A DNA stretch of 25,324 nucleotides from Chiloscyllium plagiosum (lineage: Eukaryota): NCBI RefSeq assembly GCF_004010195.1, contig NC_057718.1, forward strand, positions 102,130,059-102,155,382. The letters run 5' to 3'. Below are positions 4,215 to 25,324 of the stretch, piece by piece (within the stretch, counting starts at the first letter, position 1; each line of letters starts with the position of its first letter). Position numbers and translations under genes: made by a program. Below the pieces are notes generated by a model. It was given only the letters and a program-made list of their open reading frames with translations. It had not been told where the DNA came from and made no database searches.

Positions 4215-4770
4215 TATTTGTTTTGTGATATTTGGGCATTGCTGGTTGGCCAGCATTTATTGCCTGTCCCTAGTTGCCCTCTTGAGAAGGTGGAGGTGAG
4301 CTGCCTTCTTGAACTGCTGCAGTCCATGTGCTGTGGGTTGACCCACAATGTCCTTAGGGAGGGAATTCCAGGATTTAGACCCAGCAATAATAAAGTAACG
4401 GTGATATATTTCTAAGTCAGGACAGGGAGTGGCTTGGAGGGGAACATGAAAGGGTTGGCGTTCCCATATATCTGCTGATGGAAATGTGTTGCTGGAGAAG
4501 CACAGCAGGTCAGGCAGCATCTAGGGAACAGGAGAATCGACGTTTCGGGCATTAGCCCTTCTTCATTCCTGAAGAAGGGCTAATGCCCGAAACGTCGATT
4601 CTCCTGTTCCCTAGATGCTGCCTGACCTGCTGCGCTTCTCCAGCAACACATTTCCATCTCTGATCTCCAGCATCTGCAGACCTCATTTTCTCTCCATATA
4701 TCTGCTGCACTTGTCCTTGTAGGTGGAAGTTTTCGTGGGCTTAGAAGATGCTGTCTGAGGATCTTTGGTT
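4215..4770 (-). mobile_element. CR1/L2-like LINE 3' fragment, split by the palindromic insertion
   Basis: Minus-strand translation GSKSWNSLPKDIVG..GLQQFKKAAHLHLL; same family as 9330-9745 and 22300-22460. Confidence 0.7.
4477..4695 (+). mobile_element. Penelope-type palindromic element (family A), young copy
   Basis: 89-bp inverted arms 4477-4565 / 4570-4658 with 1 mismatch; core CTGAAGA AGGGC TAAT GCCC GAAACGTC; perfect 14-bp TSD CCATATATCTGCTG at 4464-4477 / 4694-4707. Confidence 0.85.
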
Positions 4771-5539: not shown

Positions 5540-6455
5540 GGGTCGTGCGGACGAGATCGTGAGGAGGAGAGCAAGCCACCACAGAGAGAGTGAACCCAAC
5601 GTGTGGGAGATTGAGACATCACAAAGAGAGCAAACCCAACGTGTGGGAGATTGAGACATCATGAAGAAAGTGAACCCAACGTGTGGGAGATCGAGACATC
5701 ACGGAGGAAGTGAACCCAACATGTGGGAGATGAAGACATCACAAAGAAAGCAAACCCAACGTGTGGGAGATCGAGTCATCATGGGGAGAGTGAATGCAAC
5801 ATGGCGGTGAAAGAAATCTCCCAGCCTTTGCGGTGGTGTTGAGAGAAGGCAGCCCCAGGGTCTCTTGCCATCTGTGGAAGCAGCAGTGCGTATGGGGAGA
5901 TCAAACCCATGGAGAGAATTTGGGTCATGAAGCCAGCAGGTGGTGATGGCATCGTGGCTTGGTCAGGTCTGGAACCTTGGCAGCGGGTTGGGGCTCGGAT
6001 TGGGACTTTGACAGTTGAAGATCGAGCCTGTTGTGGGAAGAGCGAGCCTTACACAGCGTGAGAAAGGTCTCTGGTATCTGCGCTGATGATGGGAGCAGGC
6101 GGCCTGAGGTTTCCCAGAGAGCAGGTCATTGCAGAGGAGATCGAGCCCTTGTAGGGAGTGTGAACTCAGCATGGCTCAGCAGTTCAAAAAGACTGCTGAA
6201 CTTTTAATATACATTATTTTTATTTTTCTATTTAACACTAAGAAGGACTGAAGTGTTTAATGTTTCGCTTTAAGTTCTTTTATTTTTCTACTTTGTACTA
6301 AGAACTGAAATGTTTAGCTGTTAACTTCTTTCTTTATTTCTCTATTTTGTTCGTAAGAACCTTTGTACCTAAGATGGTGCTGGGAATGATGACAATGTGT
6401 ACACTTTTCACTGTACTCATATACTTCTGTACATGTGACAATAAATTCTAATTCT
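5540..6455 (+). mobile_element. Non-autonomous element with internal minisatellite and Rex1-like 3' tail
   Basis: Tail TCACTGTACTC...GTACATGTGACAATAAA matches the tail of the Rex-like LINE at 11494-11540 (minus). Confidence 0.45.
5581..5810. repeat. Minisatellite, 40-bp unit (...AACCCAACGTGTGGGAGATYGAGACATC), about 5.5 copies
   Basis: Exact 40-bp periodicity; degenerate GGAGATCGAG echoes continue to about 6150. Confidence 0.92.
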
Positions 6456-6508: not shown

Positions 6509-6691
6509 GGAGAAAGTGAGGTCTGCAGATGCTAGAGATCAGAGCTGAAAATGTGTTGCTGGAACAGCGCAGCAGGTCAGGCAGCATCCAGGGAACAGGA
6601 GAATCGACTTATGCTTATGCCCGAAACGTCGATTCTCCTGTTCCCTGGATGCTGCCTGACCTGCTGCGCTGTTCCAGCAACACATTTTCAG
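6509..6691 (-). mobile_element. Penelope-type palindromic element (family A), centre deleted
   Basis: Inverted arms; 13-bp TSD CTACTATGACCAG at 6494-6506 / 6692-6704. Confidence 0.8.
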
Positions 6692-7004
6692 CTACTATGA
6701 CCAGCTTCCAATCAGATGATTCATCATGATAAACTTGACCACATTACAAACAAGTCTCTCACAGCCAACGAGTCCTGGTATGGGATTTGAACCCAGAACC
6801 TGTCGCCTAGAGAGGAGCACACTACCCACTGCACCATAAGACCTGTTACAACTAAAGTACCATGTGTGGTTTTCTTTATCTTATTATAGGAAGGATGTTA
6901 AAGTGATAGAATGTCTAGAGTTTATCACCAGAATTATACAAAGGATGGGAAATTCATATCGAGAGATTTGATATGATAACTGATTTTATGATGAATGCTT
7001 TCAT

Positions 7005-7503
7005 TAACACATGCATTTTGCAGTGGTAAATACAGTAAATTACAGTGAAAATCTTCCACTGTCACCATGATCTAGCACTGTTTTGAACAGTTTGAGAATA
7101 ATTTTAAAAAAGATTTAGCTTAAAGAGAGTCCATAACCATTCCAGCACCATTTCACTGCTGCCAGCGCCGGACCCAAACACTGTTAAAGCCACTGCTCCT
7201 CGGGTGCTATTTTTTGCCCCGGGCCTACCTCTCCAACATAACAGCCAATACCAGATCCCGCTCTGGGCTCACCAGTCACCACCAAGTTCCAGACCCTGAC
7301 GAATTCCCCCTCTCCTCCTGCCTTCCTCCATCCCCACCAATATCGCCACAACCCACCTCTTCCCAGAAGTTAAGTTGAAGCACAAACTAAATAGAAGAAA
7401 AAAAGTGAGAAAAGAAGAAAGGAGGAACAAAGGAAAGTGGACTGAGTGGACGGGTACCGGGCTGAGGAGCCTGGCCACAGCCTGTTCAACTGCCGCCATC
7501 TTG
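7005..7503 (-). mobile_element. Short element with a CAAGATGGCGGC LINE-type 5' head and a Rex-like tail
   Basis: Minus strand starts CAAGATGGCGGC and ends TTTTCACTGTA...CATGTGTTAAT; no coding core. Confidence 0.4.
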
Positions 7504-7769
7504 ATATGGTGGTCAAGGTCAATCATTTGACACATTAGGGCTACTTGCACTAATCAGAAAAAGGCAAAGAGAATTGCTGGTGGTTTCCCCAAATCCTTTT
7601 TAGTGAGTGAAGAGGGAAACATTATTTCCCTGGAGAGAGATTCAGTGATGATCGTAGAGATTAAAACAAGGTCAGCCAGGTGGACCTCCTGGAATATGAG
7701 TTCCCTGGTTGGGGCTGTTAACCTGGTCCAATCAGGGAGCCCTGGCTGACAGATATAAACAGAAGTGTC

Positions 7770-8964
7770 CTGGCCAAACTGGCCATAAGCAGGTCCAGGC
7801 AGCAGGCCATGGAGGGGGTCGTTAGGGCCGACTGCCTGCCCCTCTTCCGCGGTTACGTTAGAGCCCGGGTGTCCTTGGAGAAGGAGCACGTGGTATCGAC
7901 CAACACCCTGGAGTTGTTCAGGGAGAGGTGGGCGCCGCAGGGAGTGGAGTGCACCATTTCTCCCTCCAANNNNNNNNNNNNNNNNNNNNNNNNNNNNNNN
8001 NNNNNNNNNNNNNNNNNNNNNNNNNNNNNNNNNNNNNNNNNNNNNNNNNNNNNNNNNNNNNNNNNNNNNNNNNNNNNNNNNNNNNNNNNNNNNNNNNNNN
8101 NNNNNNNNNNNNNNNNNNNNNNNNNNNNNNNNNNNNNNNNNNNNNNNNNNNNNNNNNNNNNNNNNNNNNNNNNNNNNNNNNNNNNNNNNNNNNNNNNNTG
8201 TTCAGGGAGAGGTGGGCGCCGCAGGGAGTGGAGTGCATTATTTCCCCCCCAACTCTATTTTGATTTAGTCCCTACCCTCCCCTTCACTGTTTTGATCACA
8301 CAGCACTGCCCTTTGATGTGAAGGCGTCACTGCTTGTCACTGCCCACCCGGGTATTTTCCTATCTTCCTGGTGGTGGAAATTGAATAAAAGATTGGTGCA
8401 CTTTGTGTCTCTCACTGCGTTTCACACCTGCACACACGCACCATGAAAAAGAAAAAAAAATAAACAGAAGTGTCCTGGCCAAACTGGCCATAAACAGGTC
8501 GAGGCAGCGGGCCGTGGAGGGGGTCGAGCACGCGGTGTCAACCAACACCCTGGAGCTGTTCAGGGAGAGGTGGGCACCGCAGGGAGTGGAGTGCATCATT
8601 TCCCCCTCCAACTCTATTTTGATTTAATCCCTACCCTCCCCTTCACTGTTTGATCACACAGCATCGCCTTTTGATGTGAAGGGCACTGCTTGTCACTGGC
8701 CACTCGGGTGTTTTCCTAACTTCCTGGTGGTGGAAATTTGAATAAAGATTCATGTACCTTGTATCTCTCACTGTGTCTCACACCTGCACACACACAACAT
8801 GGGTGCAGGGGAAAAATAAGCACTTGTGCAGTTAGGCAGTAGTGTGGGGTTAATACAAAAAAATGAAAAAGAAAATAAATAAACAGAAGTGTCTACTGGG
8901 GAAAAATAAGCACTACCACCTAACAGTGATTGTGTGGGGGGGAAACAAAATAAAAAAAGGAAAA
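7770..8964 (+). mobile_element. Array of at least four 5'-truncated Tx1-clade (L1 group) retrotransposon 3' ends
   Basis: Peptide LAKLAI.RSRQ..EGVVRADCLPLFRGYVRARVSLEKEH..STNTLELFRERWAPQGVEC resembles the Tx1 ORF2 C-terminus; A-rich tails; 15-mer at 7755, 8460, 8879 and 8965. Confidence 0.8.
7970..8198. other. Assembly gap (229 N)
   Basis: Run of N. Confidence 1.
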
Positions 8965-9329
8965 ATAAACAGAAGTGTCAGAGGTTCTGTTCGCTCTGAG
9001 AGCTGGCTCTGAGGGAGCTGGGTCAGTGTCAAGGACTCTCCACATGTAAGTACAGGGTGATGGGATACCAGCCTTTTGGTTCAATGATGAATAAAGGAAA
9101 GCAGCTCAGAGAGTTTACTTTAAATCGAAAGCTGAGGTAGAGGTGATTGCAATCCTTAAGAACAAGATGAATAACAATATGAAGCTCAGGAGGATACAAA
9201 GATATGAAGAGAGGGAAGGCATTGAGATTAATTTGGGATTTCGGTAGCAATGTGCTGGATCAGATCCTATAGGCCAGTTATTCTTTATTATTTCAGGATG
9301 GAACAGTAAGGGGTTCAAAAACTGAAGTC

Positions 9330-11493: not shown

Positions 11494-12560
11494 TTGATTG
11501 ACTGATTGATTGTCACGTGTACCAAAGTACAGTGAGAAACTTTGTTTATGAGCAGTACAGGCAGATCCTAGTAAGCAAGGATGTACAGATCAGAGAGACT
11601 TAGACAGAGGCATACAGGTTACATGTGCACTAGGGGAGATCAGCATTAGTAAGATCAGCATTATTTGAAATTAGAAAGTCCATCCATCAGTCTAATAACA
11701 GCAGGGAAGAAGCTGTTCCTGCCCCTGTTGGTGCGTGTTCGCAATATTCTGTATCTTCTGCCTGACAGATGAGGGTGTAGGAGATCATTACCGGGGTGGG
11801 AGGGGTCTTGATGTTGGTAGCCTGTCCACGGCAGCGAGCTGCGTAAATGGAGGCCGTGGATGGGAGGTTGGCTTCCGTGATGGTCTGGGCTGTGCACATC
11901 ACTTTCTGTAGACTACTACAGTCCTGAGCAGAGCAGTTGCCGTACCAGGCCATTATGCACCCAGACAGTATGCTTTCTATGGTGCGTCTGTAGAGGTTGG
12001 TGAGGATCCTTATGGACATGCTGAATTTCCTGAGCCAGCTGAGGAAGGAGAGGTGTTGTTGTGCCTTCCTGACTGTCGTGTCTACATGGGAAGGCCAGGA
12101 CAGATTGTCAGTTATCGTCACTCTGAGGAACTTGATGCTGGGCTGTGCATATCACTTTCTGTAGACTATTACAGTCCTGAGCAGAGCAGTTGCCGTACCA
12201 GGCCATTATGCACCCAGACAGTATGCTTTCTATGGTGCGTCTGTAGAGGTTGGTGAGGATCCTTATGGACATGCTGAATTTCCTGAACCAGCTGAGGAAG
12301 GAGAGGTGTTGTTGTGCCTTCCTGATTGTCGCATCTACATGGGAAGGCCAGGACAGATTGTCAGTTATCATCACTCTGAGGAACTTGATGCTGTCCACCC
12401 TCTCAACCTCAGCTCCGTTGATGTAAATGGGACTGTGTTCTCTTCCTTTCTTTCTGAAGTCAATGACCAGTTTTGCCAACATTGAGAGAGAGGTTGTTCT
12501 CATTGCACCACATCATCACAAGTCCTCTGTCTCCCTTCTGTACTTTGACTCGTCGTTGCT
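11494..12560 (-). mobile_element. Rex1/Babar-like LINE 3' part with internal 253-bp tandem duplication
   Basis: LVIDFRK..INGAEVERVDSIKFL..LSW..KAQQ.L.FL..YRRTIESILSGCI.AWYGNC..KDPSHP motifs; (TCAA)n tail. Confidence 0.85.
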
Positions 12561-12679: not shown

Positions 12680-12888
12680 CATAGGAGCAGATTATTGCAG
12701 ATGCTGGAATCTGAACTGAAAACAAAAATTGCTGGAGATCACAGCGGGTCAGGCAACATCCATGGAGAGACAGCAAGCTCATGTTTTGAGTCTGGGTGAC
12801 TCTAATGAAGAATTATCTCGATTCAAAACATGAGCTTGCTCTCTCTTCATGGATGCTACCTGACCTGTTATGATTGCCAGCAATCCTT
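12680..12888 (-). mobile_element. Penelope-type palindromic element (family B) with decayed core
   Basis: Inverted arms; core CTAATGA AGAAT..ATTC AAAAC; TSD GCCAGCAATCCTT at 12667-12679 / 12876-12888. Confidence 0.7.
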
Positions 12889-13086
12889 ATTCACTCTCTC
12901 TCTCAAAATCAATTGTACTGCTGAGTCTGTCTGCACAAGAAAGAAAACAACTATTCAACTATAGAAATCACTGCAGATGCTGGGCTCTCTTCCCAGTCTC
13001 CGATCACTTCGAAAAGAGAGATCTTCAGGTAATCAATGGGTCTGCAACGTTAAAGAACAGAATTCACAGTCTACTCTATGCAGAAC

Positions 13087-21699: not shown

Positions 21700-21918
21700 A
21701 TCTAGAAAGGGGTGGCACTGGAAAAGCACAGCAGGTCAGGCTGCATCCGAGGAGCAGGACAGTCAGTATTTCAGGCATATGCCCTTCATTCCTGATGAAG
21801 GGTGTCTGACCAAAATGTTGACTCTCCTGCTCCTCGGATGCCGCCTGACCTGCTCTGCTTTTCCAGCACCACACTCCTCGACTCTGACTCTCCAGCATCT
21901 GCAGTCCTCACTTTCTCC
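21700..21918 (+). mobile_element. Palindromic element (family A)
   Basis: Inverted arms around CTTCATTCCTGATGAAGGG; ends CACTTTCTCC. Confidence 0.8.
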
Positions 21919-23739: not shown

Positions 23740-24067
23740 AAGACCTTCCACATCCCCAACCACCACCATCTAGGAAGATGAGGGCAGCAGATGGATTGGA
23801 ACACCGACTACCTATAAGTTCCTTTCTGAGTTGCAAATCTCAAGTCACTCCCCATCCTGACTTGGAAATATATCACCATTGTTTTTATTATCAATAATGT
23901 GTCAAAGCCCTGGCACTCCCTCCAGATAAGAAGGGTTTGGAGGGATATGGGCCGGGTGCTGGCAGGTGGGACTAGATTGGGTTGGGATATCTGGTCGGCA
24001 TGGACGGGTTGGACCGATGGGTCTGTTTCCATGCTGTACATCTCTATGACTCTATGACTCTATGACT
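23740..24067 (+). mobile_element. CR1/L2-like fragment (23740-23922) followed by a CR1 3' end (23925-24067)
   Basis: Similarity to 9500-9660 and to 436-585; (TCTATGAC)3 tail. Confidence 0.75.
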
Positions 24068-24199
24068 GACACCTATAGGGGTTGATAGGAAGGGTGAGGG
24101 CAGTAACAAATTAAAAATATTACATATGAATTTGACCGAAGGGTCTGTTTCCATGCTGTACATCTCTATGACTCTATGACTGACACCTATAGGGGTTGA

Positions 24200-25324
24200 T
24201 AGGAAGGGTGAGGGCAGTAACAAATTAAAAATACTACATATGAATGCACAAAGTATTAGAAATAAGATGGATGAGCTTGAGGATCTTTTGGAAATTGTCA
24301 GCTACGATATTGTGGGGATAACTGAGACGTGGCTTCAAGTGGACAGGGCCTGGGAAATGAATATTCAAGGCTATACGTGCTATCGTAAGAACAGACTGAT
24401 GGGCAGAGGGGGTGGGGTGGCCATGTTGGTAAGGGATGATATTCAGTCCCTTGCACGGGGGGACCTAAAATCAGGGAATGTAGAGTCAGTATGGATAGAG
24501 CTGAGAAATTCTAAGGGTAGAAAGACCCTCTTGGGAGTTATCTACAGGCCCCCAAATGGTAGTATGGATGTAGGGTGTAAGTTGAATAAGGAGCTGAAAT
24601 TGGCCTGTCGCAAAGATGTTACTACAGTTGTTATGGGAGATTTTGTGGAGTGCCTCCGAGATGGATTCTTAGAACAGCTGGTGCTGGAGCCGACCAGGGA
24701 GAAGGCAATTCTGGATCTGGTATTGTGCAACGAACCAGAATTGATCAGGGACCTCGAAGTGAATGAGCCATTAGGAAGTAGTGACCATAATACTATAAGC
24801 TTCAATCTGCAATTTGAAAGGGAGAGGATACAATCGGTAGTGACAATATTTCAGTTGAATAAAGGGAACTATGGAGTTATGAGGGAGGAGCTGGGCCAAA
24901 GTACAATGGTGCAATACCTTAGCAGGGATGACAGTGGAGGAACAGTGACAGATATTTCTGGGTATAATGCAGAAGTTGCAGGATCAGTTCATTCCAAAAA
25001 GGAAGAAAGATCCTAGGAGGAGGCAGGGGTGGCCGTGGCTGACGAGAGAAGTTAAGAAACATATAAAGTCAAAAGAGAAAAAGTGGAACATAGCAAAGAT
25101 AAGTGGGAAAACTGAGGACTGGGAAGCTTTTAAAGAACAACAGAGGATTACTAAGAAGGAAATACGCAGAGAAAAAATGAGGTACGAAGGTAAACTGGCC
25201 AAACATATAAAGGAGGATAGTAAAAGCTTTTTTAGGTATGTGAAAGGCAAAAAAATGGTTAAGACCAAAATTGGGCCCTTGAAGACAGAAACAGGGGATT
25301 ACGGGGAACAAAGAAATGGCAGAA
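24200..25324 (+). pseudogene. CR1 LINE ORF2 APE endonuclease region, disrupted, running off the window
   Basis: Motifs NAQSIRNK, GITETW, GGGVA, GVIYRPP, MGDF, LDLVL and SDH; apparent deletion after GDF; frameshift near 24897, continuing into PWLTREV..DSKSFFRYVK. Confidence 0.92.

Follow-up and report, generated by a model that had tools for sequence, protein, structure and literature searches.

The locus described here lies in a 25,324-nt stretch of shark DNA (the window) and raises a simple question: why is one 15-bp word repeated exactly at the borders of successive LINE fragments, all of them inside a single LTR? In our interpretation the locus is a stack of Tx1-type LINE copies, reduced to their 3' ends by truncation, at a 15-bp site, and we consider it likely that they arrived there through recognition of this site by the LINE endonuclease.

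Results

A 15-bp word separates four LINE fragments

A scan of the window for ATAAACAGAAGTGTC returned four exact matches, at 7755, 8460, 8879 and 8965, precisely as the initial annotation had reported. No further match with two or fewer mismatches was present elsewhere in the 25,324 nt. In shuffled sequence the 15-mer was found 0.04 times on average, and four copies were reached in none of 100 shuffles. The copies mark the borders between 5'-truncated, A-tailed LINE 3' ends, which are arranged head to tail (Table 1). The A-rich tails that had been described in front of copies 2-4 were also recovered, the final 15 nt upstream of these copies containing 87%, 73% and 80% A, respectively. All four 15-mers are identical while the intervening units differ by 8-10%. 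The length of the target at copy 1 becomes 14 bp if its first A is counted with the tails.

Table 1. Coordinates of the host LTR, the 15-bp target copies and the LINE units (positions in the window).
Feature	Position	Strand	Remarks
Left host TSD ATGAT, 5 bp	7648..7652	+	identical to 9084-9088; family flanks diversify here
Left LTR half, U3-like, 117 nt including target	7653..7769	+	high copy
CCAAT motif, putative function	7728..7732	+	sequence
TATA-like motif TATAAA	7754..7759	+	sequence; putative promoter role
15-bp target, TSD copy 1	7755..7769	+	exact match; empty-site joint
Unit 1	7770..7969	+	5'-truncated C-terminal fragment of a Tx1-type ORF2; open for 66 codons; interrupted by the gap
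Assembly gap, 229 N	7970..8198	.	would hold end of unit 1 and start of unit 2
Unit 2	8199..8459	+	ORF2 end, 3' UTR, A-rich tail
TSD copy 2	8460..8474	+	exact 15-bp match
Unit 3	8475..8878	+	404 nt; ORF2 stop, 3' UTR, terminal hairpin 8821-8844, A-rich tail
TSD copy 3	8879..8893	+	exact 15-bp match; spanned by single-copy contig of second species (B)
Unit 4	8894..8964	+	71 nt; divergent copy reduced to a very short 3' end
TSD copy 4	8965..8979	+	exact 15-bp match; empty-site joint
Right LTR half, R/U5-like, 104 nt, ends CA	8980..9083	+	high copy
Right host TSD ATGAT, 5 bp	9084..9088	+	identical to 7648-7652

Unit 1 starts at exactly the same position of the element as unit 3, from which it differs at 11 of 137 positions (8.0%); compared with unit 1, unit 3 has a 63-nt in-frame deletion. 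Units 2 and 3 differ at 25 of 257 positions (9.7%) and have a common tail start position. Unit 2 lacks 64 nt found in unit 3, comprising the terminal hairpin, and the missing part sits between short ATG repeats. Unit 4 has a 5' end of its own, distinct from those of the other units, and shows 14 mismatches in 66 positions (21%) to the end of unit 3. The hairpin loop of unit 4 (8911-8934) is inverted relative to that of unit 3, matching it at 16 of 24 positions when reversed and at 10 of 24 in forward orientation. This suggests a loop flip between LINE subfamilies.

The units resemble the 3' end of a Tx1-type LINE

The reading frame of unit 1 has 53 relatives among 1.84 billion representative proteins, and zf-RVT is present in two longer ones. 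The closest full-length protein reached from unit 1 was a 1308-aa alligator ORF2 in the cluster of these relatives, which carries Exo_endo_phos, RVT_1 and zf-RVT domains. Unit 1 aligns with residues 1238-1299 of this protein at 47% identity, and a 67% relative of the alligator ORF2 bears the database name 'transposon TX1 uncharacterized 149 kDa protein'. The match to the end of an ORF2 with APE-EN, RT and zf-RVT, the zf-RVT of the relatives and the TX1-named protein together point to units that are 5'-truncated 3' ends of an L1/Tx1-type LINE, in line with what had been proposed for the intervals between the 15-mers; the Tx1 clade label is based on the 62-residue match and the database name rather than on an RT tree. 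The 5' truncation, the A-rich 3' tail and a 15-bp TSD defined by the empty site (see below) make up the signature of TPRT.

Pfam returned no match for the unit 1 fragment, which covers the last ~65 codons of ORF2, and Rfam no RNA family in the whole window. A pattern scan of metagenome contigs with the LINE 3'-end motif was likewise without a match. The LINE family is very abundant, and many copies may lie away from the LTR. Tx1 L1-like repeats are reported for whale shark and Callorhinchus (PMC8455134).

Shark gene models named pentraxin-like and CutA in the databases contain the ORF2 end of this LINE, and a full ORF2 carries the name rhombotin-1 in alligator. These names are probably annotation errors, the alternative being exonisation. 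The named protein matches of the window are mis-predicted proteins of Hemiscyllium and Chiloscyllium; two of the ten protein matches looked up were whale-shark predictions.

The host element is a high-copy solo LTR

The stack is located in a high-copy solo LTR of about 221 nt, whose two halves span 7653-9083. This assignment is based on the start of the repeat at 7653, outside which the family flanks become diverse, the CA at 9083 and the matching 5-bp flanks, and general LTR features (PMC3601003), such as TG...CA-type ends and a TSD of 4-6 bp, were used to recognise the solo LTR and the TATA position. Depth summed over public sequencing runs rose from 6-38 in the flanks to more than 150,000 at 7656-7783, and a second very-high-copy stretch covers 8936-9063. 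Loose ends before 7665/7669 were observed in 228-411 contigs. In the copy at 7653-9083 the 5' terminal dinucleotide of the LTR and the poly(A)-signal region are decayed. Pattern scans of metagenome, viral and prokaryote contigs with the LTR motif gave no match.

TATAAA at 7754 is the sole occurrence of this motif in 7600-9100, and the duplicated target begins at its first base or just past it. The proposal that the target is the core promoter of an LTR-like element thus agrees with the position on a TATA-like motif of an LTR, the promoter function being putative; 'TATA box' is used here on the basis of motif and position rather than of a mapped start site.

Unfilled LTR copies carry a single 15-mer

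Four public runs were aligned to 7400-9300 at 82% likeness: three DNA runs, two of them from species A (from two studies) and one from species B, and one RNA run of species A. The best-matching run may itself be the source of the window. A joint from 7754 to 8965, with exactly 15 shared letters and skipping 1210 nt, represents the empty site. It was supported by 14, 20 and 13 contigs in the three DNA runs and by 4 RNA reads. Furthermore, the left LTR half runs directly into the right half (7769 to 8980) in 487, 330 and 481 contigs. Unfilled copies of the host LTR hence hold one 15-mer and no LINE, which identifies the 15-mer as the TSD. A comparison of empty and filled LTRs had been suggested by the initial annotation as a check of its view that the 15-mer is a regenerated target, and the outcome bears this view out.

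Other LTR copies are entered at the same target

All five joints from the left LTR half to the LINE among the rows listed (the best 15 of 2057, and the best 12 of 607 for those with letters, chosen by support) leave the LTR at 7759-7762, inside the target. Four of them, 7759 to 7941, 7761 to 8344, 7761 to 8351 and 7762 to 8639, occurred in one run only (X5), and the fifth, 7762 to 8679, was present in 1, 5 and 2 contigs across the three DNA runs. Their entry points into the LINE (7941, 8344, 8351, 8639 and 8679) are all different. In the four of these joints for which letters were available, a variant 15-mer appears, on our reading, to be completed before the LINE starts. We read the five joints as other LTR copies that would share the same top-strand cut and have different truncations. 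Since the truncation points differ, they argue for separate insertions even if filled LTRs were amplified later. Such amplification could explain why the joints have depths of 128-260 compared to 6-16 in the single-copy flanks.

Among the rows listed there was neither a joint from LTR to LINE that left the LTR outside the target nor a tail-to-flank joint from another locus. Under uniform insertion the chance of five joints at the target is ~2e-6, a rough value that is overstated because the rows were picked by support. Taken together, independent and differently truncated copies at one target comprise the five joints, unit 4 and units 1/3. Targeting of LINE insertion to the 15-bp LTR site is therefore well supported and, in our judgement, highly probable, as far as the listed joints go.

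The stack is old and probably contains four units

The edges of the assembly gap overlap by 55 nt, with three substitutions and one indel (4/55). Between individuals the flanks differ by 0.2-1.3%, and the excess at the gap edges has a P of about 0.006 at the higher of these rates. Units 1 and 2 were considered as two alleles of one unit, a reading that was rejected on this comparison. As the difference of the edges exceeds the rate between individuals, separate units 1 and 2, and hence four units in total, are the likelier count, with errors at the contig ends possible. The initial annotation had deduced at least four units from the differing edges, and its count is retained with this reservation. 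The gap probably contains a fifth 15-mer. To close the gap, a minimum of 222 nt is required when unit 1 is given the end of unit 2, and 282 nt when it is given that of unit 3.

The right end of the stack was also found in the sister species B. A single-copy contig of depth 10 covers 8828-8990, from which it departs by 9 substitutions and 2 gaps, and crosses the end of unit 3, a TSD, unit 4, the next TSD and the LTR. The flanks of species A and B differ at 25 of 591 positions (4.2%). The unit 3 end, unit 4 and both TSDs were thus in place before A and B separated, and the right end of the stack is old rather than misassembled. The stack is an old non-coding fossil.

At least two insertions probably built the stack

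We regard at least two independent insertions as very probable. At a minimum, one event would have given rise to unit 4 and another to the common ancestor of units 1-3. The independence of unit 4 is derived from its own 5' end, its 14 mismatches in 66 positions and its inverted hairpin loop. The possibility that unit 4 is a duplicate of unit 3 that has since decayed was rejected.

For units 1 and 3 the situation is different. The initial annotation had every unit as an independent reinsertion, a claim that cannot be upheld in this form because these two units share their exact 5' end. With 5' ends spread over 300-500 nt, such a match has a chance of about 0.6-1%. At the 5' junction of units 1 and 3 the related proteins have Gly-Leu, which leaves about 1-3 nt of microhomology, and microhomology of this length was rejected as too little to cause the shared end. 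Positions were further compared with the family majority. Of 19 rows checked, from the best 40 of 479, 17 had a partner position; rows 8306 and 8395 were left out because the majority letter varied between runs, and rows of the flanks and the LTR were not used. Fifteen of the 17 testable positions showed a change in one unit only, and two were alignment-ambiguous. A shared 5' end combined with 8-10% divergence and changes confined to one unit fits early duplication, or reuse of a pre-truncated template, better than late duplication. Part of the stack probably grew in one of these two ways, either through an early duplication in place of one unit with its bordering TSDs or through repeated insertion from a common template that was already truncated.

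Alternatively, all four units could be fully independent insertions, in which case units 1 and 3 would have the same 5' end by chance or because of a truncation hotspot. Several observations are in favor of this. There is no clear shared private change at the 15 informative positions, and the differences of 8.0% and 9.7% between units are about twice the 4.2% between the flanks of A and B. Four identical TSDs have a probability of 0.05-0.12 if each copy drifted by 3.5-5%. In addition, Kojima 2015, in its account of SINEU-3, interprets tandem copies around a TSD as sequential insertions (PMC4494074). However, independence has to accommodate the improbable exact match of the 5' ends with its 1-3 nt of microhomology, and also the common tail start of units 2 and 3. 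We therefore consider four fully independent insertions possible but doubtful.

A model for repeated insertion and a putative promoter capture

Our preferred reading is targeted insertion, with at least two events. The LINE endonuclease would recognise the 15-bp site and every insertion would duplicate the target. By TPRT, reverse transcription would be primed on the A-rich tail from a bottom-strand nick inside TATAAA, and a top-strand cut would follow about 15 nt downstream of that nick. As the TSD restores the target, a filled site would stay open to another hit. We infer, rather than observe, the specificity of the endonuclease, the order and number of the events and the function of the promoter.

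The insertions have altered the surroundings of the TATA-like motif. TATAAA is retained at the leftmost copy only, and the right LTR half is now 1226 nt away. Tail and TSD together create AATAAA at 8459, 8878 and 8964. If the motif is functional, its separation from the right half means that the R-U5 part of the LTR has lost its promoter. A start site predicted 25-30 nt past the TATA would lie within unit 1, at 7779-7784.

It is conceivable, though in our view unlikely, that the LINE aims at this site to take over the LTR promoter. CCAAT and TATA would then stay upstream in sense orientation, and transcription would start 10-15 nt inside the insert. A full-length LINE copy could do without its own promoter and would at the same time silence the LTR element. 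Transcripts reading through from filled LTRs would have the 15-mer on their 5' side, where it could prime a precise joining of the second strand and spread truncated units of fixed length such as units 1 and 3. If so, the LINE would parasitise and cap the LTR retrotransposon family. Transcription from a flanking host element is discussed as possible in PMC4494074. In the RNA run, of which about 2% was read, 61 of 2423 aligned reads matched at 99% or more, and family-level reads of both elements were obtained. In most of them the first mate mapped to the minus strand, as is the case for sense RNA in most stranded libraries. No RNA reads were found on three LTR-to-LINE joints (among the best 15 of 2057 rows) in this run, whose sampling is too thin to weigh on promoter capture either way. 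At the locus itself, where non-coding fragments sit in a solo LTR, nothing functional is seen to be disabled or driven.

Improbable alternatives: loose preference and assembly artefact

A loose preference for AT-rich DNA would explain the stack by one chance hit followed by local tandem duplication, with the other filled LTRs as hitchhikers. Units 1 and 3 share a 5' end, and other local duplications in the window (253 nt, 246/253 identical; ~120 nt near 24009-24244) indicate that a duplication route is possible for units 1-3. The nick context also resembles the T-rich/A junction cut by the L1 endonuclease, as described in PMC1950540. On the other hand, five more truncation points occur at one position of the LTR, in different LTR variants, and unit 4 is no duplicate of unit 3. 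This makes a single chance hit improbable. It is very improbable that the stack arose from misassembly around the gap, since, despite the 229-N gap with its overlapping edges and although no listed contig covers the entire stretch, a single-copy contig of species B crosses the right end, both flanks are single-copy and run into the LTR in the DNA runs, and the units differ by 7-10%, far beyond the allele level, so that only the unit count across the gap is affected.

Further repeats in the window

Apart from the stack, the window contains a variety of other repeats. The 253-nt duplication is arranged head to tail at 11885-12390, inside a LINE-like fragment, and either arose recently on the spot or was doubled in the assembly. 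The tandem duplication of about 120 nt at 24009-24244 takes in a CR1-like tail with CTCTATGA repeats and the beginning of the following element. Palindromic elements with long arms are found at 4477-4658, 6528-6708, 1360-1537, 12721-12891 and 21712-21872. Their arms are 78-89 nt long and up to 99% complementary, and with at least 5 copies in 25 kb they form a MITE-like family. A 26-nt minisatellite of about 10 copies at 171-423 is flanked by two LINE tails. At 5566-6175 a 40-nt tandem repeat is present in 5.4 copies and one outlying copy at 6136; an AT-rich tract comes next, at ~6200-6450. This region is perhaps part of a degraded retroelement.

Discussion

The data make an aimed insertion likely and add a new shark example of a habit described in frogs and crocodilians. 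No paper on a shark Tx1 family that targets an LTR TATA box came up in full-text searches; Repbase and subscription papers, which lay outside them, may describe one. Sequence-specific Tx1 LINEs thereby gain a shark case whose 15-bp target is defined, and the shark endonuclease could be set beside that of Tx1L with respect to how APE enzymes read DNA. Stacks of this kind also date the activity of LINE and LTR relative to each other. If the TATA position was selected for promoter capture, the shark LINE would clearly illustrate how one retroelement can exploit another and disable it.

How does the shark LINE compare with known systems? The criterion of Kojima 2015 for a target-specific family is that more than 20% of flanks come from one repeat type (PMC4494074). 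Among the families treated there, Tx1-8_Crp and Tx1-4_AMi of the crocodilian Tx1-Mar group prefer LTR retrotransposons (PMC4494074). The shark LINE likewise inserts in an LTR retroelement, and differs from these two, as they are described in that source, in having a single word of 15 bp, on a TATA-like motif, as its site. SINEU-3, listed together with Tx1-Mar, forms tandem insertions around a 16-bp TSD in Mariner-N4_AMi, which are read as sequential (PMC4494074). The shark units are similarly tandem around a TSD inside another transposon. In the SINEU-3 case as portrayed there, however, the host is a DNA transposon and the units are U2-derived SINEs, whereas in the shark they are LINE 3' ends in a solo LTR.

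Tx1L of Xenopus laevis inserts in Tx1D, a non-autonomous DNA transposon of the piggyBac type (PMC4494074), and its endonuclease is reported to nick its own target (PMC1950540). Tx1L is an APE-type LINE, and the shark LINE, probably of this type, resembles it in hitting one sequence in a mobile element, a likeness drawn from description. According to these accounts the target is the DNA transposon Tx1D in the frog and an LTR in the shark. Keno, Kibi and Koshi are sequence-specific LINEs of the Tx1 clade that use multicopy safe targets (PMC4494074). Unlike that of the shark LINE, their targets are, as given in this source, U2 snRNA genes and microsatellites.
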